The notes under the pieces are model-generated. The model was given only the letters and a program-made list of their open reading frames with translations. It was not told the DNA's origin and made no database searches. The position numbers and the translations under genes were made by a program. From Rhizaria sp. SCN 62-66 (Eukaryota), in the NCBI GenBank assembly GCA_001724265.1, contig MEDY01000015.1, positions 124,001 through 168,010 on the forward strand: a stretch of DNA of 44,010 bases, read 5' to 3'. Shown piece after piece: positions 1,828-37,886 of the stretch. Numbering within the stretch: position 1 is the first letter of the stretch; the number at the start of each line of letters is the position of its first letter.

Positions 1828-2290
1828 GTTGTACACAGTTTCCTTTACACATCCAAGTGTAGAAAAAGCTGTGAGCTATAAGAACTGAAGTGGTTGCACT
1901 GCTTTGTTTCGCTGTTCGCTGTTGTTGTTTAGTGTTGGGTCGGTTTCTCAGTTTGACATGAGGAACCGATAAGGATTTTTACTTACATCGTTCTCTATCT
2001 ATCTCTCGACTTCTCGACTGTCAAAACCAAAATGGGTCTCCATCCCTCGCGCCATAGAGTGCGATAATACAAATTGAACCCTCCTACACCGCCGAGGTTT
2101 ATATTGACTTTGTTGAGCGTTACTCTCGTGTGACTGCTTGAGACGGCGAGAGGATAACCAAGTAACAGCTACTTTTGCGAGGTTTCGTTTCTTGATGCAT
2201 GATCGTCATTTTGTTCTGTCATCACTTTTCTATGAAATAACAAGCTCTTTTACTCACGTCTATATATTGCATTATTCTACAGACACTTGT

Positions 2291-4587
2291 ATGGCGTGGC
2301 TCGTGCGTTCTCAGCGCACCAATGAGCTCGCCCTGGATAACACTCCAGCCAACATCGGTCCCGGCCGCTACGATGTCGCCACATCAAGTATCCGCGTGTA
2401 CGTCTACCAACCGCAATTTCCAGTACTTGGTTAATCTTTTTCTGTCCTTGTGTTGTCTGAAACCTTGGTATACCTCGCTCTATATCACCCCGACCTAATC
2501 CACTCACGGACCCGCTCTCTCTTCCTTGCTCTATTTCTCACTCTCGCGTCTTCAGCGATGGTCCGAATTACGCCCCGTTTGCGGCATCAGCTCCGCGCGA
2601 CATTCTAGCGCCTTCGGTTACCGGCGTCCCAGGCCCCGGCAACTACAACGCCCACACCAAAGTGACTGCGATCCGCTCCACCGTCGGCACATCCCAGCCC
2701 TTCGTATCCCGCATCGGCCGCTTCGAGGGCGGCGGCCAGGACCCTGTGCCCGGCCCCGGCGCGTACGACCGCCCCGACCCCTGGGCCGCGGCTGCGTCGT
2801 CGTCCTCGACAGTCACGGCGCGCGGCGGCACGAGCGCGTTCACGAGCGGCGTCCATCACAATCACTCTAGCAGCAAAGCGCACAGTAACCCGGCGTCGCT
2901 CGGCACCACGGTGGCTTCCTCAACGCGGCCGCCGCGCGAGACCGGCAACGTCAAGTGGGAGCGCGTCGCGTCCATTCCGTCCATTCCTGCCGGCGCGCAT
3001 CGCTTCGGCTTCGACGAGGCTCCCAACGGTGAGCTTATCCCCCAGCCCCCGCCCGCAGCCGCGTCCTCACTCGTGGGCCCAGCGGTGCCGCCCGATTCCT
3101 TCGTGTCCAAGCACCGCAACGCGCCCGCGTCGACGTTCGCGCGCTCCCGCGCCACGCGCGAGGTGTGGGGCAGCGACAAACCGCTGCACAAGCTCCCGGG
3201 GCCCGGAGAATACAGCCCCTTCGACCAGGGCGCTATGGGCGCAGCGTTCGCGCCGGCGAACAATAACAACAACCACAACAACTTGCAAGACGGGCTCGGT
3301 CTCCCCGCGTCTATGACGGCCCCCGTGCCCGTGGCGTCGACAGCGCGGTATCTGCGGTGTAAGCCCAATGCGGTGTTTGCGTCCCGCAACGCCAAGATGC
3401 CCCGCGCCACTGTCAACCCCGTCCCTGGGCCCGGGTCGTACCCGTTAGCCGCTGGGTCGTCGTTCGCGCGCGCAGCCGAGCCCGCGCCCGTGCTAAAGCA
3501 GTGCTTCGGCGCCCGCGCGGCCCGCTCTCTGGCGCACATTGACGCCGCCACCGCCGCGGCCGCTGCGACGCCAGGTCCCGGTGCGTACGACGCGAACGCC
3601 AAGGCCGCGTTCCCCGGCGGTCTGGAGGTCGACATGGGCGGCCTCGTCCCTTCCGCCGCGCTGCCCTCTGCACCATCAGCGCACGGGAGCGGCGGCGTCT
3701 CGCGCGCAACCGCGGGCGCGAACGGCGTCTTCCGGTCAGCCACGAGCCGCTTCACAGGCCACGGCGCGATGGTCGCACTGCCCGCTGCGCCCGCGCCTGG
3801 CCCCGGCGCGTACTCTGTCAGCGGCAACATTGGCCGTGCCATGGCGCTAAAGTCCTTCTCCCGCAACCAGACGTTTGGCTCCACGTCCTCGCGCTTCCCG
3901 ACTGGCCCCGCGCCGCAGGGGGCGAACCCGCGCGACACGGCCGTTTCCCACCCCGCGCTGGCGGGGCTGGACGGCGTCGACGAAGCCGTGCCCCGCGCCG
4001 CTGGCGGCGGGCTCGGCCCCAACGCCGTCATCACCGTCGCGCGCAACGGCACGGCGCGGCCCTCGGCGGCGTTCAGCTCTAAGTCAAGCCGCATGGGCGC
4101 CGGGTGGGAGTATGACGCCAGCTGCGCCTCCGGAGCCGGCGAAGGCACCCCCGCCACCGCCTCCACGGGGCCCGTTCACCGCGCGCCCCCCGTCGGCGCC
4201 TACGACGTCGACATTGAGGGGCGGAAGCGGGCTGAACTGGCACAGGGCCGCAACGGCGGGAATAACGCGCACTTCCTCTCGCGCGAGCGCCGCTTCCACA
4301 CCGACACCGAAGTCAAGAACGCACTCCTCGAGTCGCACCTGGGCCCCGGCACCTACGACGTGGCGCGCGCCGTGCCCTCCGCGCACCGGGCTGTGCAGGC
4401 GCCCGTGGGCAGCGTGTTCAAGTCCTCGCAGCCGCGGTTTGTGGAGCCGAGTCTGCTACCCGCCGGCGCGGTGGCAGCGCTGGCGGCGGCCGCGGGGCCT
4501 GGCCCGGGTCAGTACGGCGGGCCCGCGGTCGGCAGCATGGTCAAGCGGTCGTATAACGTCACTATCGACACACCGCGTCCGATGTGA
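2291..4587 (+). CDS. STPG2: SHIPPO / sperm-tail PG-rich repeat protein, STPG2-like (712 aa, 2 exons)
   Basis: Exons 2291-2397 and 2556-4587; intron GTACGT..TTCAG, phase 2. Many PGPGxY repeats (GPGRY, PGPGNY, PGPGAY, PGPGEY, PGPGSY, GPGTY, PGPGQY) and FxSxxxRF motifs. Also IPSIP..FGFDE..NG and a C-terminal KRSYNVTI, as recalled for STPG2. Ends in TGA. Confidence 0.85.
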
Positions 4588-4869
4588 AAGAGATATCAGG
4601 GCACGAGAAGTGACTTGTTTTAGGTGGGGTTGTTGCAGCTGGCCATGAGGCATATCTAGAAATCTCTTATGAGAGTGATTTATCTGACAAGCTTTGTACT
4701 TGTTGTGAATACAATGTATCTTATTGATTTAAGCTATTCGTTGTTTATTTTTATCTTACGATGCCGTAACAGCACTTGGCCAATCTATAATATCAGTACG
4801 ACTCTAACAGAGTTCTGAGGCTTAGTGCACGTTGCTTTGTTGCATTTTGCTTTGTTGTAGCACACCTGC

Positions 4870-7170: not shown

Positions 7171-7701
7171 GGGAGGCGCCTCCGAGGGTGGTGTGCGACT
7201 GTTGGGCGGTGGGGAAAGACCTAGGAGAAGGGCTGTGTGGGGGAAGCTGTATAGAGGGGAGGAAAGGGGATGTGGTGAGCTCAAATTGTGAATAGTTAGG
7301 AACGCACTATACGTATATCATATTGGGAGAAAATGCGGATATGACGGTCTTTCACGCCTCTGCAATGGATTTGCGCGTCGCACGACAGGACCAAGACTCG
7401 CGAGACTGGGTGACCGTGGGCCATCGGACCAGACCGACCGACGTCAGTCAACCCTCCTCCACCACGAATCGAAGGACCAACTTCAACACCGGATATCTTT
7501 ATCTTCCCATCGTCAAGTGCAATTGTTTCACCGAGGACGCGCGGTGAATACGACTTTTGTTTACTTTCACCTTTTTATACCTCTCACCGACTCTACTGTA
7601 TTCTTCTACACCCCTCTTGCTTCAAACAGCTTTTCGCCCCTCTCCTGACCCCCTTCCAACTCGACACCAGCCACAGTTCCTGACACAAGGACCGCACCAA
7701 G
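7171..7701. promoter_or_regulatory. Probable bidirectional promoter region between divergent AATF and CHMP3
   Basis: Head-to-head ATGs are about 530 nt apart, with pyrimidine-rich leaders facing each gene. No specific element was identified. Confidence 0.45.
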
Positions 7702-9185: not shown

Positions 9186-10027
9186 AGCTGTTGTCCTTAA
9201 GATCCTTCTTCGCTTCTCAGGTCCAGGATAACTTCATAGAGAGGTCTCATTTCGTGAGCTAGGTTTGTTTTTGATTTAGATATAGAGTGTGATGTCAGAA
9301 TAATAAAGAGTTATCTATTGTTTTATTAATATTTTTTCGTTCAAATACTTCCGATTAATTCTACAATTCAATTGTTTGCTGTTGTTCTTCGACTGCTCGC
9401 GACGTTGCGGCTTCATTGCTGGAAATGATCACTGAGTGGCAGTTTGGTGTGCATACACGACGAAGGCAACACGGATGTTTGTTCCTGTCGAAGATGCATT
9501 CGGTCTTGTTGCAAGTGGGCTGGAGATGTGTACGGACCAAACCGTACAAATCATCAAAACAACTGTCGCAAGCAATGAACACATGCGACATGCAAACTAC
9601 AGACAACAACTGCAACGCACGCGATGCGAGGAAACAATACTATCACCAACAAATAGTACATGAACCACTAGTAGAGGAACACCGTAACACAGTCCAAGTA
9701 ACTATGACGTATATTTCCACGCCTACGACATGTACGCACACTGAGACGAAAAGACATGGCCAGTGATTGACATCATCATGGCCGCATTTTACGTATAAGT
9801 TTAGTATTATAGCAATAAACAGACTGGCTTAAAGAGTTTAATAAAAAAACCGACATCAACAAACAAGGACAATCAACAGCAAATCGACTTATCATGAATG
9901 GGATCGAAATCGAGGCGAGCGAGTCAGCACAAAGTGACTGTGAGAAAGAGTAAAGAAGCAGACTGAACGATCGCGAGAGGATAGTGCGCGAGAGACGGAG
10001 ACCGAGTTGGATCCGGGGCTGATTCAC

Positions 10028-12667: not shown

Positions 12668-13820
12668 GCTCTCTCGCACTAGAAGATAAAGGGCTGTGCG
12701 CATACAAAAAACACACAGAAAAGAACAGTCAAGGCGTGGGGCAGGTGAGCGTGACGAAGAAGACGGAGTGTGGAAGGAAAATGCGACGGCTTGCAAGCAA
12801 TTAGCGAAACTTTGTCTGACTTCCATCTTGGTCTGTTAAAGAGCGGTAAATTAATTTACCAAGAGAACGCTACAGTTAATCTCCCTTGTAATTGCTGGTT
12901 TTTAAAGTTGCTTGGTCGTTTCCAACGAATTGATCTTCGCAATTTCGCTGCCCGTTGTCCCAGCGAGAGCCGTTGCCAGCGCGAGCGCAGACCCACAGTC
13001 ACTCCACTCGAAAAACACGTTCCACAACGATTTACGGTACGTAACTAACTTCATTTCTTTTGAAATTGTAGCAAATAATCAAAAACTACTGTTCATTTCT
13101 GGTGCCTCTACCTTTCTATTCTTTCGACCTAGTTGCGTTTGAGTATTCTGCATTTAAGAAACAGTAACATTGCGTTACTGTAGCGTTTGAGTGGTGTGCG
13201 TCGCAGCATCAACAGTATTCAACATACTTTTGCGTTTATAATTAATGGCAGATGTGTAGATATCCCATGGATATGTTTTGTCTAAGTATGTGCAGTTCTT
13301 GTGCGCGTTCCTCAGCGCCACGTTCATAACTAACTAGCCGTTGACGCTTCAAATCGTGAGATACCTAACATGTTAGCTATACTAACTAACTTGATATACA
13401 ACCGTTTCCTAATAGAATCAACTCAGACACAACAGGAAATTTTGCACCGCGTTCTAGAAAGCGTTGTTGTGTCCTACAATAGTGTCGCGACTAATCAGCA
13501 CCTCTAGTTCGATTTACTGGCATCTGTCATGGAGGATTTGGTAGTATAGGCTGTCGACCCATGCAAAAAAATACACATTGGAACACAAAAGTCATACATG
13601 TGTGTCACAAACCCGTTTCACCAACTCACACTAGTTGTTCGACGCATGTAACCTTGGTGGATGTGAACGTTTCGGCGATTCTCAGAAGGGGTAACGTTCA
13701 CAAGAACGAGATTATCTCACGATAATCACAAACTTAGCCAATGAGATTTTGATATTATGTTTACACTGATATAAACCACGCAAATACATGACTGATTACG
13801 CAACTAATCGTGATATATCT

Positions 13821-13909
13821 GGATCAAATGATGTTGATAACCACGCTTCCGGACAAGTTAAGCCGCTGAGTCGTCGCTCGGTCAATGATCGGGGTCGGCT
13901 GATTGATTT
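13821..13909 (+). ncRNA. Candidate box C/D snoRNA with an 18S rRNA guide
   Basis: Boxes occur in canonical order: C-like ATGATGT (13828), D' CTGA (13866), C'-like ATGATCG (13885), D CTGA (13899). The terminal stem is ATCAA/TTGAT. CAAGTTAAGCCG directly before D' is complementary (one G-U pair) to the conserved 18S sequence CGGCUUAAUUUG. Confidence 0.6.
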
Positions 13910-14355
13910 GCTCCACATAACGTTTCTATGTCCGTCAAGCCACATCGGAACATACTTTCCGATTTTGCTGTGTTGTTTCAAATATACTCCTAAAATAGCA
14001 TTGCTTGGGATTGCTTTTGGGGGGCTCTATGCTTGGTTTCATCTGAGATCACCCTGTCACATCATGCCATTCGTGGTTTTTCGTGATGTTGTTGCTTTAG
14101 CCATTAGTTTCCCAATATTTAAGTTTATTTTTACATAATCTTTAGCCATGCACAACCATTTTATGTACTGCGGCTTCTACTGATTACTGTTGTACACCGT
14201 GAATCCCGTTCTTGCGTGTGCAGACTTCCGATCTCCCATCATCCGGTCTTTGGTCCCGTCATTTTTCCGTCCCTACCCAGTCACCAAACCCGTTTAGTCC
14301 CAGCAAGTTTTTCACATCTAAGTATTTAAAATCTCTGCTTCCATTCTGCCGTAGC

Positions 14356-22800: not shown

Positions 22801-25800
22801 CTGCTGCCGGCGTTCGGATTGAGAGTGATCCCCTTGACGCGCGCGCGCGTGGTGCGCACACGGCCCACACTGCTGAAGCTGCCTCGTCCAGTGACGCCGG
22901 TGCCCGCCGCAGCCGCCGCCGCCGCAGCCGCCGCGGCCGGGGTCAGGATCAGCGACGCCGCGTCGTCGTCGCCGTCGTCGCCGCCGCCGGCAGGGCCGAC
23001 AATGGCGCCGCCCGTGGCGACGACAGCGGCGCTGTCTTCGCCCTCGACGCTCTGCAGCCGGTCGAAGCCGAACCACGGAGAGGAGGAGCCGCGCGGGTGC
23101 GAGCCGCCCGTGTGGTTGGCGTGGATGCCGTGCACGGGGGTGACTTCATGGCTGGTCGAGTCAGACCACTGGTGCTGCTGCTGCTGCTGTTGCTGCTGAT
23201 GGAGGTGCATCTGGTACATTTGCTGTTGGTGCTGCTGGTACTGAAGATCCGGCTCAGGAGGGAGAGCGTAGATGTGCAACTGTCCAAACTCGTCTTGATG
23301 CGGCACGGAATCAAAGTTAGGCCGCGCAGAGTCGATCTCCTGGGGTTGAATCTCCTGAGTGCGTCCCCAAAGTGCAACAGGATCAACGCCATCGTCGTCG
23401 TCATCGTCATCGTCCTGTTGAAGCATCTGCTCCTGCTCCTGCTGCTGCTGCTGTTTCAGGCTGCTCTGTCTCGGCATGCGAGCCGACTTGAGCCCGTCGA
23501 ACTCGAACGCCATGTCAGCCGCGTTCTCGAGACTGTTGTCGAGCCCCATCGCACCGCCGCCACCGTCGCCGTTGTCATTGGCCCCGTTCCCGGTGTTGTA
23601 GTGGGTCGGCCGCGCGCCCCGCAGCGGCTTGCGCGACAGACTCATGGTGCCGTTGCGCCGGAGAGCGGCCGTCACGGCGGCGGCGCCAGGGCCCAGCCCC
23701 AAACCGGTGACCGACAGCGAGGCCTTGTCCGCGGTCACCTGGCCCGTCTTGCGCGGGGTCCCTGTGCCGGTGCCAATCACACTGAGGCCGCCGTGGGGCG
23801 CGCCGGCGGCCGCTGCCGCGTGTCCACCCTGCTGTTGTGGGATGGCAGTGACGGAGATCGAGGGCGCAGAGCCAGAGATGTTAGACAGAGGGATTGACGC
23901 GGCGGACGACGACGCGGTGGAGTGATTCGACCGGTGTGACGACGGCCTCGCACCGAAACGACCGTGGGGCGCCGCAGTGGAGTGACCGTGGACAGCGGCA
24001 GCAGACTGACCGTGGGCAGCTGCAGTTGCTTGAGCGGTGATGCTGCTAGTCACGGGGAAATGACCGTGAGAAGCCGCGACAAGAGCGTTCTGAGATTCGG
24101 ACGCTAACTGTTGACCAAGATGCTGCAACTGCTGCTGCAGCTGTTGCTGCTGCAATGAGGGACGATTGCGGGGCAGTGTCGCCAAATCGAACAGTTCGAG
24201 CTCTGCCTGGACGGAGGCATCGTCGTTTGCACCGACGTCATCGTCATCATCGTCGACGTCGCTGCCACTTATAGCGTCGTCATCGTCATCGTCGTCGTCG
24301 TCGTCGTCAAAGAATGCGCCGTCGTTTACATCTTCGTCGTTGTCGTGGTCAAACAGCATGTCGTCAGTATCCTTGACGTGATCGTTCTCGTCCTCGGCGT
24401 CAAAGAAATCGCTGTCAATCACACTCACTCCGTCTTGGCGACTGGCGCTGCGAACGCCGCTCGCATTGCCCGGCACGCCGACCGCGACCGAGTCGGTGGG
24501 CTTAACGCCGCCCTTGCCGGAACCAGTCTTGGACTTGCTTGAGCCGGCTTGTTTCCGAGTCTTGGTCCCCGCCGCAGTGGCGCCGAGCTCCACGCCGGTC
24601 CCCGCGGCCGCAGCCTGCTGCGAGCGCCGACTGCGCTGCCGCAGCGAGAGAGAAAGCGAGTGCGTGCCCTTGCCAGTGGAGCCACGGTGAACGACGGTGT
24701 CGACGTCAAAGTCGTCCTCATCTTCCTCCTCATCGTCGTCGTCGTTGCCGCTCATGGCAAGGTCATCGTCGTTGTCGTGGGACGCGGTAAGCCCGCCGCT
24801 GTTGGAGCTGTTTTTGTTGTGGCCGCCGGCAGTGAAGCTCGAGTTTAGCGCGTCCTTGCCGCCTGCGGCGTTCACGTCCCCGGCGTTGCGAGCCCCATCA
24901 ATCTCATCATCATCATCATCGTCGTAGTACGAACCGCCGAATGCGCTGAACGTATCGTAGCCGCCGCGGCCGACCATAATCCCGTCGCCGTCGCCGTTGT
25001 TGTCGATGTCGCCGACTCGAACGCGCGCTGCGCCAGCGCCGGCGCCGCTATCGTCGTCGTTGTCGTAGTCGCTGCCGGTGGCGCCGCGGGGGCCGCGGGA
25101 CTTGCCGCTGAAGCGACGGCTACCACGCCCCTGCTGGCCCGGCTGCCGCGGCTGCTGCTGCTGTTGCTGTTGTTGCTGTTGCTGTTGCTACGATGGCATC
25201 GAGACACTCGGGCTTGTCGCAGCTGCAGCCACTGGTGCGTCGCCCGCTCTCGCTGCCGTCGGCGTGTTGGCGGCGGCAGAAGCAGAGGCAGCGGCAGCGG
25301 TGGCGGTGGCGGCAGCGGTGGCGCGCAGCACACGCTGAGTGCGTGACCGAGCCTGCTGGAGTGACTGCGCGACAGCTGCAGCACGGGAGCTCGATACCGC
25401 AACAGCCGCGGCGGGACCAGCGGAGGTGGCGTTCGATTTAGCGACCGCAGTCGGCTGATGCTGAGGGTGATGCTGTTTGTGGGGCATTTGTTGGTTTTGC
25501 TGTGCGTTGTGTGGGGGAGGCGGGGCGAGCCATGCAACCACGCGTTGCACGCCTTTGCTCGCAGCGTCATCGCCGTTGTCATCTTCGTTATCCCGGTCGA
25601 CGATCGGGCCGCCGATCGTATTCAGACCGTCATTTGCGGGGGGATTCCCGTGGTTATGGTGCGTTGACGGTCCAATCATCGACGCAAAGTGAGCCTTGTT
25701 AGCCATAATACGCGGCCGCGTCGCGTCGGAGTCAGCCCGAGCCCTGCCTTGCTGCACTGGCCCCACCCCGCTGGCGCCACCACTGCTGGTCACTAGTCCC

Positions 25801-26296
25801 CGGTGCAAAGTGCCTGGGCTGATGTTGTTGCTATTATTGTTGTTGTTGATGACGCTGCTGCTGAGCGTGTTGGTGCGGCTGCGCGCGGTCAGCGTCCGGC
25901 GCACGCGCACGCTGCCGGTGGTGGTTCTGCTCACAACGCTGCTGAGATGGTTATGGTTCGGATTGAGCATGTCGCCAGAGTAGGCGAACATAGAGTTGCC
26001 GCCGCCGGTGCTGTTTAGAGTCGCGGCGTTCAGGCTGCCGGTGTTATTGTGGTGGCGCTGCGAGTTAAGGCGCAGGGGCTCGGCGCCGCGCGCGCTCGCC
26101 AGCGCCGAAATGAGCATTGAGACGGGGGGCAGCGACACGGTAGCTGTCATCGCCGCTGCGCTAGCTTGTTGATGTTGCTGTTGCTGAGACTGCTGCTGTT
26201 GCAGGGAGGTTGGAGTGGCGATGGGCATAGTGCCTGCACTGCGCGCGCTAGCCGGCGCTTCAACAGTACCACTAACAGCAGCCGTCGTCGCAGCAA

Positions 26297-26328
<32 letters not shown>

Positions 26329-26810
26329 CCACCACCACCAACAGCAGTAGCAGCAGCACCAGCGGTCATCGAAGCAACGGAGGAACTTGCGCTTGCAGAC
26401 ACTGTCACGCTATACCTAGTCGCAGCCGCGGCAGTTGACGCCGTTTGCGGGCCAATGAACACACTGTTAGCACTCGAACCAGCAGCAGCATTTGTGTTTG
26501 AGCTCGCGGGGACGGGTGCGTTAGTCTGAGGCAGCGGCAGAGACGCCGAGAGCGTCGCGATCGCCTGCTCTGCTGTCATGCCAGCCTGCAGCAGAGGGAT
26601 CATGCGGCGTGTCAGCTCCGACACAACCACGGTGCGGTCCGCGGGGACACCCGCAGCCCCGATGGCGCTCGCAGTGTCGTTTGTGGCGCCGTTTGTCGTG
26701 TTTGGGGTGGTGTTGCTGCTGGGAGGGAGGGAGGCGGCCGTGGCGGTGAGCAAGCGCGCCAACGAGGCTAGGGCCGCGGCTTCCGAGGGAGCCGCGGGCG
26801 GAGCGCTCAT
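16896..26810 (-). CDS. Giant intronless BROMI (broad-minded/TBC1D32)-like protein, ~3304 aa if the single in-frame TAG at 25190-25188 is decoded
   Basis: ORFs 25188..26810 and 16896..24977 share one frame, and the 71 codons between them are coding-like. Segments RLLAALLLARTPASDLLARGYWRPLRRSL, SPLALLCSIDPSATWLRRLL and N-terminal ELTRRMIPLLQAGMTAEQAIATL resemble BROMI blocks as I recall them. The rest is low complexity. Ends in TGA. Confidence 0.55.
25152..25187 (-). repeat. CAG/CAA polyglutamine tract (12 codons) directly after the in-frame TAG
   Basis: Minus strand reads TAG CAA CAG CAA CAG CAA CAA CAG CAA CAG CAG CAG CAG CCG. Confidence 0.9.
26301..26327. repeat. (AGC)9 microsatellite encoding poly-Ala on the minus strand
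   Basis: Perfect trinucleotide run seen directly. Confidence 0.9.
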
Positions 26811-27265
26811 TTAGGGAGACGCGCACGTCAAGCGTGTGTCTGTGTGGATGACGTGTGCACGAGGGAGTGTTGTGTCCAAGGCTGGGGTCAGGAGACGAAA
26901 AGGGATACAGAAACGATTCTTTGATGAGCCAAAGCCGAGGATTTTGAGATGCAGATGTCAATCACAGGCATATCAACAAGCGTATCTCAATTAAAACCTG
27001 GTGTAAAACCACAAGATCGGTCCAACTTTGATATAAAGCGTGATTTTCGCAAACTATACACTCGGAAATGAAGATAAGCTTGGCACCACTCATTCGACTG
27101 TGAAGTTCACCTTCAATCATATACAGTACAATAGAGTCTCCGACAACAAACTTACGATTCGAACACAAAAAGCATACCAATCGCACATAGCGGATCACAA
27201 AATTATATATTGTACAAAGATGAACTCGAAGAGCTGCACTTTCCCAACACATCACACCTCGACGA

Positions 27266-27293
27266 CCCCCCCCCCCCNNNNCCCCCCCCCCCC
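27266..27293. repeat. Poly-C/G homopolymer containing a 4-N assembly gap
   Basis: C12-NNNN-C12 seen directly. Confidence 0.95.
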
Positions 27294-27591
27294 GTTCAGC
27301 CACCACAGCACTTTGGCACGCAGCTCCAACAAGACACAGGTTAGAGTATAACTATGATCTTTAACGTGTGTTTTGTATTAGAATAACTTCATATGTAGAT
27401 ATATATTAGAACATAAACAACTTCCTGCCTTCCTCACAGCACAGTATCCCCTGTTTCATATCGATACGCAATTGAGCAACGCACCTCACAAGTGTGACAA
27501 GTGACATAACATTGATCATCAGCCGCCCCAAACCTCAGCAGCAGCTTCGCCCCAAGCACGATAAAGCGACTTTACGTGTGCAGCGGCCCGC

Positions 27592-28848
27592 TTACTTCTG
27601 CCTGATATCGTTCGGGGTGGCCACGGATGACTGCATGAGCGAGCCCGAGTCCAGGAACACACGGTTCCCACTGCCCGCAATAGTCTCTGCGATCTGCGCT
27701 GCGGCGTCGAGCTTGCGCAGCTCCATGTAGCCGGGGTTCTTCGCGATCGCGGCGCCAATGAGCAGCGCGGATTGCGCCTCACCCTCGGCCTTGATGATGG
27801 TCGAGCGCTTGTCCTGCAGCGCCTGCTTGACGAAGTACTTAGCGCGCTCAGACTCCTGCTGCGCGACCTGCTTGGCCTCGACGGCGGCGCGATACTCCTT
27901 GCCGAAGGTCAGGTGCGTGATCGACACATCCTCAACGTCGATGTGGAAGTCCACGGCGCGGTCAGTCAGGTTGCGGCGGATCAGGCGCGAGACCTGTTCA
28001 CGCTGCGTGATGAGCTCGCCTGCAGTGAACTGGGCCACGACGGACTTGAGCGTCTCGTTGATGATCGAGGGCAGCACGCGCTCGTCGTAGTCCGTGCCCA
28101 GCTGCATCAGCACCTGTGGCAGCGCGTCCTGGAACGGCTTGTACAGCACGCGCAAAGTGATGTCGACGGTCTGCAGGTCGCGCGTGCCCGTGGGGGAGCG
28201 CACGATCTGGTCCTGGGTGCGGACCGAGAAGATGTACGGGTACTCGATGTACGGGATGCGGAAATGCGTGCCTTCGCGCACCACGGTGGGGTTGACGCCT
28301 GTAATGCGGTTGAAGATGACGCCCGCGTGACCGGCATCGACGTTGTAGAGGCAGTTGATGCCGGTGTAGATCATCGCGCCGCCGCCCATGATCGCCATGA
28401 GGCCGCCCAAAACGCCCTTGATCGTCGAGGCGCTTGCCCGGCCAGCAGAGCTGGAGCCGCCGGACGCACCCTGCTGCGTCTGTATGGGAGCGCCAAAGCG
28501 GGGAAAAACAATTTAAGGGTTGAGAGAGCAAGGTTGGAGGATGAGAGGCAGACAGGCGATCGGTGTAGTTGTTGTGAGGGAGGGAAGGTCAGAAGAAGCA
28601 AACGTGGGACGAGACTCGAGATATGACAAAGATTACATCAGCATAGACGAGTGGAGAAAGTGCATATCAGAGATCGAATAGAATTCTGGTCAAGTCAGTT
28701 GTTTGCAGTACGAAGAGTCGCCGCTTGAGAGTGGGTATGGGGCAGATTGGGGACAAGACGTGAGTGATCGCACGAGAGTCCGGCAGGTAGGATAAAGAAT
28801 GATAAAACGTACCACGACCATAATGCGCTTCATAAGATTAGCAGCCAT
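27592..28848 (-). CDS. PHB2: Prohibitin-2 (SPFH/band-7, mitochondrial inner membrane; 307 aa, 2 exons)
   Basis: Exon 1 is 28848-28813 (MAANLMKRIMVV), followed by a GTACGT..TACAG intron and exon 2 at 28479-27592. Motifs GTHFRIP, DLQTVDITLRVL, DYDERVLPSIINETLKSVVAQF and AVEAKQVAQQE. The C-terminal NPGYMELRK..IA..GNRVFLDS is PHB2-type. Ends in TAA. Confidence 0.95.
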
Positions 28849-29200
28849 TGTATCAGTACAGATAATCACTAAAACGAGGACGTTTAGTGAAGTATATCGT
28901 CAGATGTTGACCTTCAAAGTCATCCCCCAGAACGCGAGGGTCCACATCAGTCTCTCTCGGTTGGCCAGCCAATTGACTGTGAGCTCGACCGTCCACATTC
29001 CAGTTTGTGGTGAGAATTGAAACAGTACAGATATGCACTTGAAACAAACGTTAACTCAATTTATTCGTGGTAATACTCATGCAAAATAGGACAAAACATA
29101 ATTAAACACTAATTGGTATCTATATCAACGCATATACAGCGTTACATCTACTCGATCGTGAAAGAGATCATATCGCGTGATAAGATCCACGCCGTTCTGC

Positions 29201-31006
29201 TCACCGTGCGGCGATGGCGTCAATCTGCACGAGCGCGTCCTGCGGCAGCGCAGCCACGGTCATGACCGTCACGGCGGGGGCCGCGAGCCGCGCCTCGAGC
29301 TCGACCACCTCATCCCCGGCCTTGGCAGCGCGTGCCGCCGCCCAGACCGCGTTCGTGATCACCTCACTGGCGGTCTCGGCGTCGGCCGCGGGCGCGAGCA
29401 GCACGGTGAGCTTGAGCGCCTTGAGCAGCGAGCTATTCTTACTCAGCAGCGCACGCTCCACGGCCGCCAGCGCGGACTCGGCCGCGCGCGCCGTCTCAGC
29501 GCCCGCGGCCGCGCTGTTGTGGGCCGCGGACTCAGCGGAGCCGGCGAGGGCGCCCTCAGTGAAGATGACACCCTTGGGCGCGGGGGGCCGGCCGAGGTAG
29601 TACGCAGTGCGCGCAAAGGGGCACTTGGGCGGCACGGTGACGGCCTCAATGGCGGCGGCGCGCGTAGTCAACACGGACATCGCCGGCACGGGGACATTAG
29701 TCGCAGCCTTGGCGTCCGTGGCCGCGGCGGAGTCGACGTGTTCGACGGTGGCCTCCGAGGCGAGGGCGGCGACGGCCTCGATCTCGGCCTTCGCGCCGAC
29801 CGGGAGCCCCGCGACGGCGTAGGCCGTGACGACGGTGGGCGAGGCACCGGCGGGGAACCGCTCGCGGACGACGGCCAGCGCGGGCGCGATGTCGGCCGCG
29901 GCGGCGACGAGCACGGTCAGGCGGCACACGGTCTCGAGCGAGGCGCCCGAGGCGGCCAGCACAGCCGACAGGGAGGTCAGGGCCACGGCGGTCTGCTCGG
30001 CAGCGGTAGCGCCGATGAGCTGGCCCGCAGGGTATGTGTCGGGGGACGCGGCGCGCTGCTCGGGGGTTGGCAGTGCGACCTAAAGAGGGAACAAGGGACA
30101 GAAACATAAATGAGTTACAGATATAAGGGAGATGTTAATGAACTACAGTAAAATTGAGATATAGTATCTAAGATATAGTAACACAGCATATAAAGGAGAT
30201 TTACTTCAAATATCATACGATATGGACATAAAGCGATGCAATTTAAAGAAACGCACCTGTCCGGAGACGAAGACGATGCCGGAGCCCTTAAGCACGGAGC
30301 ACTGCGAATAGGGCCCAATCGCGGCGGGCGCGGCCTCCGTCGCCGGGTGTGCGACGGGGCTCGCGGCCTTGGGCAGCGGGTGCGGGCAGGGCGCCTCAGC
30401 GGGGGGCGCCGTGCCCGCGGCGGCCGCGGCGGCGCGCTGCTTGGCGATGAACGGGCACTGCGCAGCGGCGGCGGCGGTGGCGGTGGCGTCAGCGTCGGCA
30501 GTGGCGGCGTAGGCCTCGACTGCAATAAGCGCGCCGGGCACCGCGGGCGCCGGGTTGGCCACGGCGTAGCACGCGCGCGCGGGGGGCGCCTGCGGAAACG
30601 TCTCGGCGTAGACTGCGTTGACAGCCGCGAAGTGAGCCATGTCGGTCAGCAGCACGGAACACTTGAGCACGTGTGCCGGGGAAGAGCCCGCGGCGGTGAG
30701 CGCGCGCGTGAGGTGTGCGAGCGCGGCGCGGGCCTGCTCGGCAGGGTCGGTGGAGACGACGGAGCCCGTGGCAGCGTCGGTGCCGGCGATGGCAGGGATG
30801 TACACGACGTTGCCGAACGAGTGTGTCACGGCGGCCGGGACCGGGGTATTCTTGCTGTCCGAGAGCGCGAGCGTGGCCTTGTGCTTCTTCCACACGGCGC
30901 CGCGGACCTTGGTGAGCTTGCGGGAGACAGTGCGCGCCAGGGGCACGGCCGCGGCGGCCAGACCGCCGAGGACTAGCGTGCGGAGCACGGTGGGGGTCAG
31001 AGACAT
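29201..31006 (-). CDS. Three tandem RidA/YjgF/UK114 domains with an N-terminal hydrophobic-basic leader (542 aa, 2 exons)
   Basis: Exons 31006-30257 and 30079-29201; intron GTGCGT..TTTAG, phase 0. D1 has VLKCSVLLTDMAHFAAVNAVY..PPARAC. D2 has APAAIGPYSQ..FVSGQ..LPVGAKAEIEAVA. D3 has LKLTVLL..VAALPQDALVQIDAIA. Ends in TGA. Confidence 0.9.
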
Positions 31007-31325
31007 CTGCGCCAGACACAGAAAACGCGTGCAAGGAAAAAAATGACAAATAAATTTAGTAGAGTTCATCGTGGCCATATCGTGACATAAGTTTCAAAGA
31101 AGTTTGGCGATGTATTATAGCGATACAGACGCAGACCCCAAAAGGTCGGTTTTTGATCTGCCAGTCTTGGGCATGCCCAACCTGAGGCGAGAAAAAAACT
31201 TGTGGTGATACGTGTTTTCGCACTCGCACCGGCGTACAACAAACCCATCCATCAATGATACTCACTTGCTAATGTAATAAATATAGAGACATATAATAAT
31301 AGAGTCCGCCTTTGCCGGTCCTCTC

Positions 31326-33367
31326 TCACCGGAGCGAGAGCATGTCCTTAAGCTGGAGCTTCATCTTGATCTTGGTCACCTCAGCCTGCGGCGTCTTCTG
31401 CAGCTCGGGCGCGAACACATTGTACCCAGCCGCCTTGAGCCTGTCCAAGTACATCTCCGCGGCCGAGATCGACAGCATGTGGCGCCGCAGCTCCTTGGGC
31501 AGTTTCGCGGTCTCCGCCCGGGCCATGGCCAGCTGCTCCTCTGCGATGTTACAGATCTGCTCCACGGCTGCCGTCAGCTGAGCGCGGGTCTCGGCCGCAG
31601 CGGTCGCCTCGGCGAGCTCGGCCGCGGAGGCAGCACTTTGGCGACCGTGGGCAGCGGAGTGACCGTGAGCAGCGGAGTGGCCGCCGCCGCCGTGGTTGTG
31701 GCTGCAAGCAATCCCACCGTGACTGTGCGACACTGCAGCGCTGGCGCTGCTGCTGGTGTTATTAGACACAGTGTTACTCGCAGAGTTGTTGCTAGAGGTA
31801 GTGTTCGAGTTCGAGTTAGAGTTTGAGCCAAAGATCGACCTCACCTTGCCCCACATACCCGCATCGCCACTACTACTACTATTCATCGCATGCTGCTGCT
31901 GCTGTTGCTGCTGCTGCTGTTGGCGGCCCAGCTCCATGTCCCGCTGGTGCTCACGCGCCTCGCTGCGGCCCTGCTCCGCGCGCAGCCGCAGCAGCGCCGC
32001 GTCCACAAGGTTGCTGCCCACCGTCTCGGCAGTGGCGTACCGGCCCTCGCCGGTATCGCGGCCAACGTTAGTCATACTCTGCGCATTGGCACCGGCGCCA
32101 GCGCTGTTGCTGCCTACAGTCGTCGTCTTGAGCCCGCCTGAGGAGCTGTGATTGCTGTGGGCGTGAGTACTGCGGGAACCCGCGCTGCCCACGGTCATGC
32201 CCACGGTCGCGCTCTCCGCGAGGTCGAGGAACGGCTCCAGTTCGCGCGCCTGGATGCCCTGGACGGACCCCGAGCCGAGCCGCTTGTCGTGCTTGGCCAC
32301 CAGATCCGCGCTCAGTCCCAGCAGCGCGGGGCGGTGCTTGAGCACGCGTTTCGCGGTCAGGTCCCCGTGCTCGGAGAGAACGTCGGCCGGCAGCGCGACC
32401 CAGCCGCGCGAGAGCGTAAACGGCAGCAGCCGCAGCAGGTCGGCCAGTCCCTCGGCGCGGCCCGCCAGCACCGCGGCGGCGTGCGCGGCCGGCGGCAGCC
32501 CGGGCGGGGCGGCGGCGGCGGCGACGGGCAGCGGCGGGGCGAAGCGGTGGCCGACGCGGATCGCTTCGGCCAGCTGCAGAGAGAGGAAGTTGAGCGCGCC
32601 GTAGCTTGCGTCGATGGTGGCCACGGTCTCCGCAAGAGATTCGGGCTGCTGCTGCGCCAGGAGCCCCGCCTCGGCCTCCAGCACGGCCTCCAACAGCGGG
32701 TAATCGATGACGTCGCCGTACTCCTTGGACACCAGGCAGAGAGCGGCCACGACCGGGTGCCGCGGCGGCGGGTCCACCGGCGTGTTCACCGAGACCGCCG
32801 CGGTCACCGCCGCGGTCGCAGGTGCGGTGGCGCTGGCGTTGGCGGCAGTGGGGCGGCCGTGGACGACAGCGCCGCGGATCGAGTGCAGCGCGGATCGCCA
32901 CCACTGCAGACGCACCAGCCCCACCTGCGGGTTGTCAACCTTCTCCGCGATAGAGCGGACTTCGGCCGAGAGCGCGCGGAGGGCCGCCGCCACGGCGCGG
33001 TCGCGCGGCGGCAGGACGGAGAGCGACGGGTGCAAGAAGGGGAGCTTGTGGCGCACTTGCTCGTTGCAGTATGGAATGCAGTCCTCGATTTCGTTGGCAA
33101 CGCTGAGTAGAATACAAAAATGAACAAAGTTTGAAATGAGCGGGTGAAATTTAAGTTACTACTGAGCGGGAAAAAACTGTAGAAAAGACCAGCGAAGCAG
33201 CTCACGAGAAACGGCCGTCGTTGTGCATTGCGCAAACGCAAGTCAGCCAGCAGATGGCGGTACACGAACCTGGAAGACTGAAGGCGGACCGGAGCGAGGG
33301 CAGGGGCAGCGCTTGCAGTGCGGCGCATGGCGCGCGCCAAAGTAGCGGTAACACGGCCACGAAGCAT
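31326..33367 (-). CDS. NDUFAF6: Complex I assembly factor NDUFAF6 (squalene/phytoene synthase-like) with a large low-complexity insertion (~624 aa, 2 exons)
   Basis: Exons 33367-33270 and 33102-31326. The donor is GTTCGT; an in-frame alternative GTACCG lies 6 nt further on. Presequence MLRGRVTATLARAMRR. Motifs YCNEQVR, ALRALSAEVRSI..VGLVRLQWWR, PPRHPVV and YLDRLKAAGYNVFAPEL. Ends in TGA. Confidence 0.88.
31643..31678. repeat. Two-copy 18-nt tandem repeat encoding HSAAHG
   Basis: GACCGTGGGCAGCGGAGT followed by GACCGTGAGCAGCGGAGT. Confidence 0.85.
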
Positions 33368-33826
33368 CTTAGCGCAAGTAAAAAGCTGCTGCGCGGACGA
33401 GGTGAAGTTCACTCGAGTGCAAGTTGCGGGAGTGCGGGCGGCGAAGGACTGGTGGGCGAGGCGGAGATAGTGTGTTTGAAAGAAGTTGATCGTCAGCGAG
33501 TCTGAAATATCGATTTGAAGCGTTTTACCGATTGAATATGTATAATACTAAAATGTATAGTTCTAAGTGCGTCATTCTTGTGAGGTATGGATGTTTTTGA
33601 TAGTGCGGCACCTGGGTTAACCACAGCTGTTTACCCAGTCCTCCACCCTCTTCGAGCTCATCGCTTAAAATATGATATGGAGATCTAAATGTTGCATTCG
33701 TATGCTACCTGGTAGGATTTAACTCCTATCCTGTTGCCATGTACTCATAACCTGTTTGTATCCCGCGATATCCGAACAAATCTTCATAGCCAGCGTTCCC
33801 ACCACAAACGCACTCCTCCTTGCGTA
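33368..33826. promoter_or_regulatory. Probable bidirectional promoter region between NDUFAF6 and RTCA
   Basis: Divergent ATGs are about 460 nt apart with an AT-rich core. No element was assigned. Confidence 0.45.
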
Positions 33827-36421
33827 ATGTCTGCCCCGACCCCCCGCGCGCTCTCCAAGCGCCTCCCGCCGCTGCGCATCGACGGCTCACTGCTTGAGGG
33901 CGGCGGCCAGGTCCTTCGCAACGGCTTCGCCCTGAGCGCGCTCACCGGCCGCGGACTGACGGTGCATTCTATCCGCGCGTCCCGGCCCCGCGGCGGCGGA
34001 CTCGCGGCGCAGCATCTGGGCGGCATCGAGCTCTGTGCAAGGGTGGATACGGGCAGCAAACTTGACGGCGCCCTGCTTAAGTCCACGGTGGTTACGTTCA
34101 CTCCAAGTGTCGTCAGCAACAACAGCAACAGCATCGGTGGTGATGATGATTCTGTTGCTGTTGCTGCGGCGGCTGTGGCTCAGGCCAAGACCGCAACCTC
34201 CACTCCCGAGGACGAGACTAATGACTCCGAGACGAAGAACATCACCACTGTCCAGCAACAGGAACAACTGGCGCAGCTGCAGTGGCGGTGGGCCAAGGCG
34301 CTTGACGACAGCACTCAGGCCCCTCTTCCCCCAAACACACTCGCACTACACAACGTACTCAGTGCATCAACCAGCACCACAAACAGCTCAACACAGTCAG
34401 CGGCACAGTCAAAGGCGCAGTCGACTGAGTCGCAGTGGTCATCAGCGACGCCTCCCGTGGGTTTCCCAGTGTGTTTGATCAACACAGCGGGCGCGGCTGC
34501 GCTGGTGCTGCAGCTGATCCTGCCTGTGCTGATGTACTTACCGGTACCCACGGTGCTCACAGTCACTGGCGGGACACACGTGCCGTTCTCACCCCCCGTC
34601 GACTACATCAGGCAAGTGTTGCTTCCAGTGCTGAACAAGCTTCTCACTGGCTTCAGTACTAACAACATCAACAACAGCAACAAGGATAGCCGTGTCCAGT
34701 CTGCGAAGAGTGCACCTATGCGTGAGCTCGTGCAGTTGTCCGTGCTTCGTCGTGGATTCATGCCGAACGGCGGCGGCATCTGTCAGCTCTCTGTAGTTCC
34801 CACCCCTCTCTGGCCCGCTAACCCCGCCCGCAGTCACTCTGCTCTGACTGGTACTGCTGACACTGCTGCTGATGACGGTCACGTGAGTGCTACCCACTGT
34901 CAATCGCCAGCGCTGCCTGCGTTCGACTTGACCACGGTCGGTCTGCCGACAACTCTCGAGCTTATTGTTACACTGCCTACGAACATCCTAACTGCATACA
35001 ACAAGAGCACCAGCAGCAAAGCCAGCAACGACGCGAGCCAGAGGTACGGCGAAAACGGCGCCGTCGCTGTGGTGGCCGATGCGTTCAGCAGTGCCTGGGC
35101 GGAGGCTGCCGCCGCGCGTGTCAAGGCGTACGAGCAGAGCAAGACTGGACAGAGCCAGAAGGCGAAGTACTCAGAGGGCCCATTTGCTGACGTTGACGCT
35201 GCCGGTGTGTCTAAATTGCAATATCTCAAGGCGCTGACCGCGTTGAAGCCAGTCATCGTGCTTGACGCTGTCGCTACCGTTGAGGCTGCTGAAGCCGAGT
35301 CACATGCGGCGAAGTCTGGATATAAGGGTAAGCCGCCTGTCGCGAGCGATGTTAAGCCGGGCCACGGCTTCCTGCTGGCGACTGTGGGCACTGACACTGG
35401 CTGCCGTCTGGCGGTATCAGAGCTGTTTCAGCAATCCGGCGGCGGCGGCGGCGGCAGTAGCAGCAAGGGTCACGGAGGCGGCAACAGCCACAACAATCGC
35501 AACAAGGGTCCTGCTGACAAGAATGCTAGCAGCAACAACAACCAGAATACCAACAATAATAACAACCGCAAGAACAACAACGCGAAGGATAGTCAGGCCG
35601 AGATTGCTAAGCCTAACACTAAGTCTGCGCACACCGCAACTGCGACCTCAGCAGCCGCTAAAGCAAACACTGCAGCGATGACGCCAGTCCCGACTGCACC
35701 TGCGCCGGATAGTAACCCGGCGCTGGCGGGGTATATCACCATCGCGCGCGCCGCGGCGCGGCAGCTGAGCGCTCTGCTGTCGCTGCGCGTGTGCGCCGAC
35801 TGGCACTTGCAAGACCAGCTGATCGTCTTCGCCGCGCTCGCCGAGGGCCGGTCGCGGGTCCTGGTCGGGGATGGGAAGCGATACAGCCGCAGCCGGGGCG
35901 GACGGGAGGCGATCGCGAAGGATAAAGCTGCCGCAACGGCTGCGCTGGCTCAGTGTGTGAGTGACGGCAAGCAGTGTGTTGATGGCAACAGCAAGAGCAC
36001 AAGCAGCAATGACTCTACTGACAAGGAGACTGATGTTGCAGCCGGCAACAAGGATGCAGCTGAGGGCGGCGATGCGAGCACCGAGGTGTTGCAGAGTGCG
36101 ATGTGCGCGTATCTGCGCCACTTCTCGTGCGGCGAGCCCGGCGAGCACCGCAGCGTGTTTGACAAGAGCCACGACGACGCCAGCAGCAAGGGCCCGGCTA
36201 AGGGGGTACTTAGCGCGGGTAAGGGCCCGCTGGAGCTGCACACGGTCACGGCGATGCTGTGGGCCAGCGTGCTGCTGGGTGTCGACTGGGACATCGAGGA
36301 GGAGGAGGAGGAGGACGACGATGACCGTGAGCAGGGTCAGGGTGGAGATAAGGTGTGGTATACGGGCCGGGCCGTGGTGACCGTGAAGGGCGCTGGGCAC
36401 CGCAGTCGCTGGGTCATGTAA
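33827..36421 (+). CDS. RTCA: RNA 3'-terminal phosphate cyclase with long insertions (864 aa, intronless)
   Basis: Motifs IDGSLLEGGGQVLR, IRASRPRGGGLAAQHL, TAGAAALVLQ, GGTHVPFSPPVDYI, RRGFMPNGGG, HLQDQLIVFAALAEG and LELHTVTA. The last carries the adenylated His, which points to RtcA rather than Rcl1. Ends in TAA. Confidence 0.9.
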   Translation: MSAPTPRALSKRLPPLRIDGSLLEGGGQVLRNGFALSALTGRGLTVHSIRASRPRGGGLAAQHLGGIELCARVDTGSKLDGALLKSTVVTFTPSVVSNNSNSIGGDDDSVAVAAAAVAQAKTATSTPEDETNDSETKNITTVQQQEQLAQLQWRWAKALDDSTQAPLPPNTLALHNVLSASTSTTNSSTQSAAQSKAQSTESQWSSATPPVGFPVCLINTAGAAALVLQLILPVLMYLPVPTVLTVTGGTHVPFSPPVDYIRQVLLPVLNKLLTGFSTNNINNSNKDSRVQSAKSAPMRELVQLSVLRRGFMPNGGGICQLSVVPTPLWPANPARSHSALTGTADTAADDGHVSATHCQSPALPAFDLTTVGLPTTLELIVTLPTNILTAYNKSTSSKASNDASQRYGENGAVAVVADAFSSAWAEAAAARVKAYEQSKTGQSQKAKYSEGPFADVDAAGVSKLQYLKALTALKPVIVLDAVATVEAAEAESHAAKSGYKGKPPVASDVKPGHGFLLATVGTDTGCRLAVSELFQQSGGGGGGSSSKGHGGGNSHNNRNKGPADKNASSNNNQNTNNNNNRKNNNAKDSQAEIAKPNTKSAHTATATSAAAKANTAAMTPVPTAPAPDSNPALAGYITIARAAARQLSALLSLRVCADWHLQDQLIVFAALAEGRSRVLVGDGKRYSRSRGGREAIAKDKAAATAALAQCVSDGKQCVDGNSKSTSSNDSTDKETDVAAGNKDAAEGGDASTEVLQSAMCAYLRHFSCGEPGEHRSVFDKSHDDASSKGPAKGVLSAGKGPLELHTVTAMLWASVLLGVDWDIEEEEEEDDDDREQGQGGDKVWYTGRAVVTVKGAGHRSRWVM

Positions 36422-36829
36422 GCTTTCTAGTTACGCTAATTAGTCAAGTCCCAGTGGAGGTAGAAAAGTCTGAATCGAATCAATACAAAGTGATTAATGC
36501 ATTATGCTCAGAGACTAAAGGACAAAGGGAACGTAACGAGGAAAAGGTGTAAACAGGTTTGTATTAACTCTGTATTCAGCGATGAAGCACTCGTACCGCA
36601 ACACTAACTGAGTGATACGTGCTAGAACCGACCAGTTGTCATAGTGGCGATATGCGGGCACTCATGACAGACTCGGTTCAACCAACCAACGATTGACAAG
36701 ACTTAACAGTCATCGCAACCGTTTTCAAACAACGGCGACGGCGACTCAACAATGACCTTAACTCCCCAAGCCCACTCACGCGGCGATCACGCGGCGTTCA
36801 CGCAAACAGCGCAGCGACACAACGCGCAC

Positions 36830-37402
36830 TTACGCGATGACGGGCTTCTCGGCGTTGAGCTTGGCAATGTAGTCGGGGCGCGTGGTCTCGATGATGCGCT
36901 TGTAGAGGGAGCCGAGCGTGCCCTTGCTGAGGTACTTGTCCTCGGTGTCCTCGGCCACGTTCGTCACGAGCGCGTCGTACGACTTCATGGCGGTGTCACT
37001 CGAGAACTGGCAGTTAGCGCAGCCCTGGGGCGCCTTGGCGGGGTTCATCGCCTCGCGGAGCTTCTCCAGCGAGTTGAGCTTGACCTCGCGGCGGGTGTTG
37101 GCCCACTCGTTCCACGACTTGTCGAAGGTCGTCTTGTCGTTCAGCTCCTCGAGGCGGTCGTGCAGGAGCGCCTTGACCTTCTTGTCGTGCCACAGGGGCT
37201 TCTCGCGGGTGTCCTTGAGACCGAAGGCGTCCTTGCGGATGCGCTTGAAGACCTTGGCGTCCTTCTTCACGTCCCACTGCTTGTCGATCTTGGCGAATTG
37301 GTGAGACGCGCCGTTGTTCGCAACGGGGTTCACATCGCCCGCCAGGGCGACACACACGAAGATAACCGCGAAAACACAGATCGAAAGGATCGAGCTGCGC
37401 AT
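36830..37402 (-). CDS. Small secreted, charged Lys-rich protein with a CxxC motif, unknown function (190 aa)
   Basis: Signal-like N-terminus MRSSILSICVFAVIFVCVALAG, very strong C/G-ending codon bias, and CANC. Ends in TAA. Confidence 0.8.
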   Translation of the reverse strand: MRSSILSICVFAVIFVCVALAGDVNPVANNGASHQFAKIDKQWDVKKDAKVFKRIRKDAFGLKDTREKPLWHDKKVKALLHDRLEELNDKTTFDKSWNEWANTRREVKLNSLEKLREAMNPAKAPQGCANCQFSSDTAMKSYDALVTNVAEDTEDKYLSKGTLGSLYKRIIETTRPDYIAKLNAEKPVIA

Positions 37403-37886
37403 TAGGCTACCTGGAAAACGCAAAGAAAATGACAGGATTAGGGGCGAGAGAAAGGAGCAGGCACCACACAGAGAAAAGGGTGAGACTTGGCCACTTCAAT
37501 GACGTCAAAATAGGGGTAAAATCCGTCATGACAGAATGCCATTAGAACATGATATGTAAAAGCTTAGTTGAAATATATGTTATATATGGCATTATCATAA
37601 CACGCGTTCTTAGCCCTCCACAGGCAATTTAAGGTGGTCTTCAAGGAGGGCAAAACGGTAAATGATTTAATCTTTTTGCAGAACCGTCTTGCCGTCCGGC
37701 TCGCAGACTGAGAGGCTTAGGGACATCTGACATGCAAAAAACACCAGAAGACAAAATGAAGTAATATTGTTTATTGCGACTTGCATTGTCAACTATAGTC
37801 ATGTAGGCTATGTAAGTATAAGTATATCTCCAGGTATCGGTTATCATCTCAAAGTGAAAGCAAGTCGTGATGCAGTCGTTCGCTGA

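Follow-up and report, generated by a model that had tools for sequence, protein, structure and literature searches.

Six genes in a 44,010-nt stretch of contig MEDY01000015.1 of Rhizaria sp. SCN 62-66 (assembly GCA_001724265.1, positions 124,001 to 168,010; hereafter the window, 44 kb) carry an acceptor-like motif, that is, a pyrimidine tract ending in YAG, within 20 nt before the start codon. These genes are STPG2, a membrane-protein gene, a dehydratase gene, PHB2, the RidA gene and a gene annotated as 'secreted' that starts at ATG 37402 (the 37402 gene). An initial annotation had proposed that the motifs are orphan 3′ splice sites, used for the trans-splicing of a spliced leader (SL), and the six AG coordinates and their distances to the ATG were all as claimed on reading the sequence (Table 1). 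With about even confidence, we favour a different interpretation, in which the six sites probably represent neither one phenomenon nor the signature of a spliced leader, but a mixture of ordinary leaders, transcription start sites and some cis-spliced introns in the 5′ untranslated region (5′UTR).

According to this interpretation, a pyrimidine-rich stretch on the sense strand would precede most ATGs, and a YAG inside it would mimic a 3′ splice site. In particular, the PHB2 motif lies within an ordinary 5′UTR, and the sites of RidA, the dehydratase and perhaps STPG2 and AATF would most likely be the 3′ end of a cis-spliced 5′UTR intron. Moreover, transcription of the 37402 gene would start at the pyrimidine–A step ending its tract, and the extra letters found there on two RNA contigs (24 and 4, respectively) would be an overhang at the end of the contig, for instance from adapter read-through or a hairpin, as on the PHB2 contig. 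The pattern expected of an outron, consisting of a break at the AG and no cover upstream, was seen in one of the two genes with 5′ RNA data (the 37402 gene and not PHB2). The RNA thus fits the proposal of trans-splicing at the 37402 gene, where it breaks at the AG as predicted, and contradicts it at PHB2, which leaves trans-splicing as a possible, unproven explanation.

RNA contigs on the window

RNA contigs of four runs (X1–X4) were placed on positions 18001–38000, which include three of the six sites, and gave a 5′ end for two of them; the splice joints considered were the 15 listed out of 58. Runs X1 and X2 were cDNA of one sample, and their contigs matched the window with 0 other letters. 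In contrast to these, X4 behaved as DNA from a strain differing by about 1% from the window; X3, which belongs to the study that produced X4, was polyA RNA. In X1 and X2, essentially no cover was found over the PHB2 intron or the intergenic bins: the bin 28006–28672 was explained by exon 2 alone according to our own arithmetic, and the bin 33342–34008 had a depth of 0. As introns and spacers were uncovered, unspliced precursor RNA was considered negligible in these two runs. Several bins were uncovered in the RNA runs and were not counted as evidence.

Two introns were removed in both X1 and X2, namely those of PHB2 and of the RidA gene (Table 1). The 5′ end of the latter gene was not reached by any RNA contig shown. 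Some depth of X1 and X2 was seen at 31040, with none at 31024 or 31101, which probably stems from a short and spurious match to T-rich sequence.

The acceptor-like site of PHB2 lies within its 5′UTR

For PHB2, contig record 10 of X2 comprised exon 2, the splice joint and 83 letters past the intron, running collinearly with the genome from 28813 to about 28895, which is 25 nt beyond the candidate AG (28870–28869); record 2 of X1 ended at 28864. Since the contig is spliced and precursor RNA is negligible, this read-through represents mature mRNA. The AG of PHB2 is therefore located inside an ordinary 5′UTR of about 47 nt, starting near 28895. PHB2 had been presented as one of the clearest orphan acceptors, and collinear passage of the mRNA through the AG was the very observation that the initial annotation had named as speaking against trans-splicing, so that its claim does not hold for this gene.

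Past position 28895 or so, record 10 carried 19 further letters that could not be placed. The genome has no AG at 28896–28897, so the position near 28895 was taken as a transcript start and not as a splice junction. Furthermore, an overhang of 19 letters at a place without an AG indicates that non-genomic 5′ overhangs arise in these data without splicing. The idea that the PHB2 leader is a relic copy of a leader was also considered and rejected, as no joint between 2887x and 37412 appeared among the joints listed.

The contigs of the 37402 gene break at the AG

For the 37402 gene, record 8 of X1 (817 letters, depth 38.6) matched 36620..37412 with its positions 25–817, leaving 24 extra letters, and record 15 of X2 (659 letters) matched 36779..37412 with its positions 5–638, leaving 4 extra letters. 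The orientation was set by record 2, whose numbering runs opposite to that of the window, and the 24 and 4 extra letters accordingly belong to the 5′ end of the mRNA. In both contigs, the match to the genome ended exactly at 37412, which is the A of the predicted AG, so that the mRNA is collinear with the genome from the A of the CAG onwards. Exactly this break would be expected if a leader itself ending in AG were spliced onto 37410; the leader would have to end in AG because the match stops at the A of the AG at 37412. However, a transcription start at 37412 with an overhang from assembly or adapter fits the data equally well. Moreover, X1 and X2 represent one sample assembled twice, and the break at 37412 is therefore a single observation.

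The depth profile was also informative. In X1, the bin 37344–38000 had a depth of 4.66, of which the exon of the 37402 gene alone gives 4.05 (69 nt × 38.6 / 657). Since the exon accounts for the depth of the bin, the upstream spacer and the positions 37895–38000 are not co-expressed with the 37402 gene. On the other hand, record 23 of X3 (polyA RNA) and record 31 of X4 ended at 37403, with no overhang on the X3 contig, and a second X4 contig overlapped from about 37377. These ends at 37403/37404 probably reflect a branch of the assembly graph caused by a strain difference between the AG and the ATG, and they were given little weight.

At the other end of the gene, the match of record 15 of X2 ended at 36779 (− strand), 51 nt past the stop codon, and was followed by 21 more letters, while record 8 of X1 continued to 36620. 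This second break could be either a poly(A) site or a 3′UTR intron at the GTGAGT starting there, for which a good acceptor is available at 36516–36515.

Frequency of acceptor-like motifs before start codons

Sites were defined as a YAG with at least 65% pyrimidine in the preceding 20 nt, located 0–20 nt before the ATG, and 13 start codons were considered. Such sites were found in 7 of the 13 genes, compared to 0.92 expected from the non-coding DNA of the window (62 sites in 17,671 positions, both strands). Leaders are themselves rich in pyrimidines, and the sense-strand pyrimidine fraction over positions −100 to −1 exceeded 0.5 in 11 of the 13 genes. When the upstream 60 nt of each gene were shuffled with dinucleotides preserved, a mean of 3.31 genes presented a site, and seven or more did so in 9 of 1000 shuffles. 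With stricter pyrimidine thresholds, the number of genes fell to four at 0.70 and two at 0.75, numbers that were reached in 163 and 397 of the 1000 shuffles, respectively. Going upstream from the ATG in bins of 20 nt, the counts of sites were 8 (0–20 nt), 3, 2, 5 and 1. Thus, the motif is real and modestly concentrated next to the ATG, and the composition of the leaders accounts for most of its excess, as the shuffles already expect 3.31 of the seven genes and the stricter thresholds show no excess. A position weight matrix built from 10 internal acceptors was overfitted (leave-one-out scores from −3.1 to 15.4), and it was replaced by the measure of YAG plus pyrimidine content.

Candidate cis donors upstream of the sites

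The window has few introns, and their donors are very uniform, following GT[AG]CG[TC] with a single GTTCGT (12 donors taken as real); the acceptors are pyrimidine-rich YAGs with branch-like CTNAY motifs nearby. Such strong conservation of splice signals is typical of intron-poor eukaryotes (compare the account in PMC2483917). A scan for GT[AGT]CG[TC] upheld the claim that PHB2 and the 37402 gene have no GT[AGT]CG donor back to the previous gene, and it recovered the candidate donors that had been noted at 31237 (RidA) and 13037 (dehydratase); the one noted at 2059 (STPG2) was confirmed on reading the sequence. By the strict consensus, therefore, PHB2 and the 37402 gene lack a cis donor, while RidA and the dehydratase do not. 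Overall, donors of the intron consensus of this genome were present upstream of two of the six sites (13037 and 31237).

With the looser pattern GT[AG]NG[TC], PHB2 still had no donor and the 37402 gene had one, the GTAAGT at 37894. Additional looser donors were a second one for STPG2 at 1871 and a weak one for the membrane-protein gene at 12996, and a GTGAGT was also found at 31265 (− strand), upstream of the RidA AG. Furthermore, a GTGCGT was located 62 nt before an acceptor-like site of AATF, which probably marks a small 5′UTR intron. In view of the consensus-type donors upstream, the sites of RidA, the dehydratase and perhaps STPG2 and AATF were read as most likely belonging to cis-spliced 5′UTR introns, and for the first three of these genes ordinary introns of this kind would be plausible. 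In the RNA placed on 18001–38000, which includes RidA but not STPG2, the dehydratase or the membrane-protein gene, no joint starting from the candidate donors was among those listed, the 5′ end of RidA being beyond the contigs shown.

Weighing of the alternatives

Several points count against the favoured mixture of ordinary leaders, start sites and cis introns. No cis-spliced 5′UTR intron was confirmed by RNA in the part of the window where contigs were placed, and the 24 extra letters of the 37402 gene were placed nowhere in 18001–38000, with no joint at 37412 among those listed. In addition, the break falls on the exact AG of the best acceptor-like tract of the window, for which the chance was roughly estimated as 1 in 5 to 8, and a start at 37412 leaves a 5′UTR of only 10 nt, compared to 47 nt for PHB2. 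Finally, the density of acceptor-like sites in the last 20 nt before the ATG is about three times that of each bin of 20 nt farther upstream.

The best surviving alternative is SL trans-splicing in a subset of genes, comprising the 37402 gene and possibly RidA, the dehydratase, STPG2 and the membrane-protein gene, while PHB2 and others keep their own 5′ end. In the trans-spliced mRNAs, a separate SL RNA would donate a short capped leader to the AG preceding the ATG. This explanation was considered possible and clearly less likely than the favoured one. It would account for the contigs of X1 and X2 that end at the predicted AG with extra 5′ letters, for the 475 nt upstream that are uncovered, and for the absence of a GT[AGT]CG[TC] donor from the interval upstream of the 37402 gene. 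Moreover, both overhangs are shorter than 31 letters, as expected if a shared sequence meets an assembly graph of k=31, the leader tracts with branch-like CTNAY motifs resemble the real acceptors of this genome, and the sites are concentrated within 20 nt of the ATG. Partial trans-splicing without operons has also been documented, as described in PMC5619915 and PMC8570151, and the escape of PHB2 would be compatible with partial systems such as those of cryptomonads and eustigmatophytes. On the other hand, the two contigs amount to one observation, no shared leader was found among the overhangs, which were seen by length alone, and PHB2, one of the two best cases, is unspliced at its AG and yet has a contig with an overhang at a position without AG. 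Additionally, the polyA RNA of X3 ends at 37403 without an overhang (to which little weight was given), and the sequence signal is weak after controlling for composition.

The searches for a leader or its gene bear on the same question, and none of them revealed an SL RNA gene within the 44-kb window. A search of the window against Rfam gave 0 hits at the gathering score, and a scan at E ≤ 5 returned weak matches to microRNAs and small RNAs, regarded as noise, with no SL family. A regular expression for a donor followed by an Sm site matched at three places in the window, none of them convincing, one being probably the small AATF 5′UTR intron. The overhangs considered, by their length, were those of the 37402 gene (24 and 4 letters) and of PHB2 (19 letters). 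A metagenome scan with the protein of the 37402 gene returned one locus (L001), which was genomic, 100% identical to 36699–38255 and devoid of a transcript 5′ end. Lastly, exact look-ups in protein clusters found 9 of 13 sequences recorded, none with an N-terminal extension that could be encoded by a leader; one of the entries, P0125 (302 aa, from a Logan contig of 1145 nt), merely begins at the second ATG of PHB2.

A further alternative, which we regard as improbable, is that the AG at 37412 is a cis acceptor, with a 5′ exon joined either through the GTAAGT at 37894, which would turn the coding sequence of the 37402 gene into a read-through product or an alternative terminal exon in frame with the upstream gene, or from a non-coding exon beyond 38000: that GTAAGT is the sole GT[AG]NG[TC] of the interval, the upstream frame stays open through 37412 into ATG 37402 and other sites of the window have plausible cis donors, but the exon of the 37402 gene fills the depth of the bin 37344–38000, the 24 letters were not placed on 37895–38000, no joint between 37894 and 37412 was among those listed, and GTAAGT is unlike the GT[AG]CG[TC]-type donors taken as real. 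If used, the splice from 37894 to 37412 could turn the 190-aa 'secreted' open reading frame (ORF) into an alternative terminal exon of the large upstream ORF, but the RNA depth speaks against this for the main transcript.

Features and gene content of the window

The coordinates of the six leaders, the candidate donors and the two introns removed in RNA are collected in Table 1. The membrane-protein gene with its start at ATG 12667 corresponds to a recorded gene call (P0128).

Table 1. Positions of acceptor-like leaders, candidate donors and RNA-supported introns in the window.
Feature	Position	Strand	Remarks
GTGCGA, weak candidate donor	2059..2064	+	224 nt before the STPG2 AG; sixth position departs from GT[AG]CG[TC]
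STPG2 leader: branch-like ACTCAC, pyrimidine tract, CAG	2251..2282	+	AG 2281–2282, 8 nt to ATG 2291
Membrane-protein gene leader: pyrimidine tract, TAG	12679..12720	−	AG 12680–12679, 11 nt to ATG 12667
GTACGT, consensus donor, candidate boundary of a cis 5′UTR exon and intron	13037..13042	+	1318 nt before the dehydratase AG, behind a GC-rich island
Dehydratase (PALP) leader: pyrimidine tract, TAG	14315..14354	+	AG 14353–14354, 1 nt to ATG 14356
PHB2 intron, GTACGT...CAG, 333 nt	28480..28812	−	Removed in X1 and X2, joint 28479/28813; spliced frame open
PHB2 leader with candidate AG	28869..28895	−	AG 28870–28869, 20 nt to ATG; kept in mature mRNA, not an acceptor
RidA-gene intron, GTGCGT...TAG, 177 nt	30080..30256	−	Removed in X1 and X2, joint 30077/30255, cut +2
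RidA leader: ACTAAA, long pyrimidine tract, CAG	31007..31060	−	AG 31008–31007, 0 nt to ATG 31006
GTACGC, donor	31232..31237	−	231 nt before the RidA AG, <90 nt from the NDUFAF6 stop codon
37402 gene leader: CTAAT, pyrimidine tract of about 60 nt, CAG	37411..37480	−	AG 37412–37411, 8 nt to ATG 37402
GTAAGT, donor-like	37889..37894	−	The upstream ORF stops two codons later; via AG 37412 the frame continues into the 37402 ORF (by reading)

The coding DNA of the window is rich in G+C (up to about 0.72), the spacers are richer in A+T, and genes are found on both strands. This DNA is present in public sequencing runs of wastewater and activated sludge. Pfam families supported the assignment of STPG2 (SHIPPO), AATF (TRAUB), the dehydratase (PALP), PHB2 (Band_7), RidA (L-PSP), NDUFAF6 (SQS_PSY) and RTCA (RTC), while the Pfam search gave no family for the 'membrane' and 'secreted' (37402) genes. 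A tRNA scan of the window found 0 genes.

The best named homologues of PHB2 were 57–67% identical and came from plants, red algae and a dictyostelid. A homology search with RTCA returned a single weak hit, one with NDUFAF6 returned no hit, and an Atlas search with the membrane protein yielded no usable match; in the literature, donors of the GTACGT type did not indicate a lineage either. A closer relative, 87% identical, was found in JGI data (P0003, P0123 and P0124) as a spliced transcript form together with genomic forms; its transcript form has 306 aa and the same N-terminal exon pattern. The 'RidA' gene (29201–31006, − strand) has two exons and about 540 codons and is not a single-domain RidA, as L-PSP is matched once in exon 1 and over two stretches of exon 2, the matches being interspersed with Ala-rich linkers.

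Two further peculiarities of the window were also observed. A lone TAG at 25188–25190 (− strand), directly followed by a CAA/CAG run encoding poly-Gln, separates two ORFs of the same frame, 25191–26810 (540 codons) and 16896–25187 (about 2760 codons), which could be two genes; a small intron that escaped recognition, read-through of the TAG or a fault in the assembly could also explain the arrangement. Furthermore, the spacer 27274–27294 contains four Ns (27278–27281), and X4 omits 14 and 2 letters there and differs at four positions, so that the assembly of the window has a small gap or an error at this point.

Comparison with known systems and significance

Ordinary pyrimidine-rich leaders or initiator regions, as well as cis-spliced 5′UTR introns, present a pyrimidine tract and a YAG shortly before the ATG. 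Like such introns, several genes of the window have consensus donors 62–1318 nt upstream, and the tract of PHB2 lies inside a 5′UTR; unlike them, the 37402 gene has no donor of the type used in this genome, and its overhang letters are unplaced in 20 kb. The outrons of nematodes have a UUUUCAG-type acceptor a few nucleotides before the AUG, which the sites of RidA, the dehydratase and the 37402 gene resemble. However, the window differs from nematodes in its GC-rich coding DNA, its few introns with GT[AG]CG[TC] donors and a gene structure that is not animal-like.

Partial SL trans-splicing is already known in protists. In the cryptomonad Guillardia theta, at least one-fifth of the genes are reported to be trans-spliced (PMC5619915), and the proportion given for the eustigmatophytes Monodopsis and Vischeria is 36–61% (PMC8570151). 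The sites described here share with these systems an AG close to the ATG, the involvement of a fraction of genes, no obvious operons and the coexistence of GT-AG cis introns. In contrast, the systems of cryptomonads and eustigmatophytes are defined by SL RNA genes and by a leader shown to be common, while one of the two sites of the window with 5′ RNA data is unspliced. SL trans-splicing has also been described in Paulinella micropora (PMC6053224) and in Perkinsozoa (PMC9399869), which, as far as these sources describe it, are likewise protist lineages where acceptors without a donor upstream of coding regions mark the addition of a leader. No evidence places this organism in or near either of them, the best named relatives of its PHB2 being 57–67% identical.

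If the favoured interpretation is right, the case calls for caution, since pyrimidine-rich leaders yield acceptor-like motifs before the ATG by composition, and the one of PHB2 is demonstrably no splice site. It is a tentative prospect that a GC-rich, intron-poor flagellate lineage from wastewater adds a leader ending in AG a few nucleotides before the AUG to part of its mRNAs, as at 37412, while neighbours such as PHB2 would retain capped 5′ ends of their own. If this were true, it would be another deep, independent eukaryotic lineage with partial, operon-free SL trans-splicing, which would bear on the repeated evolution of this process.

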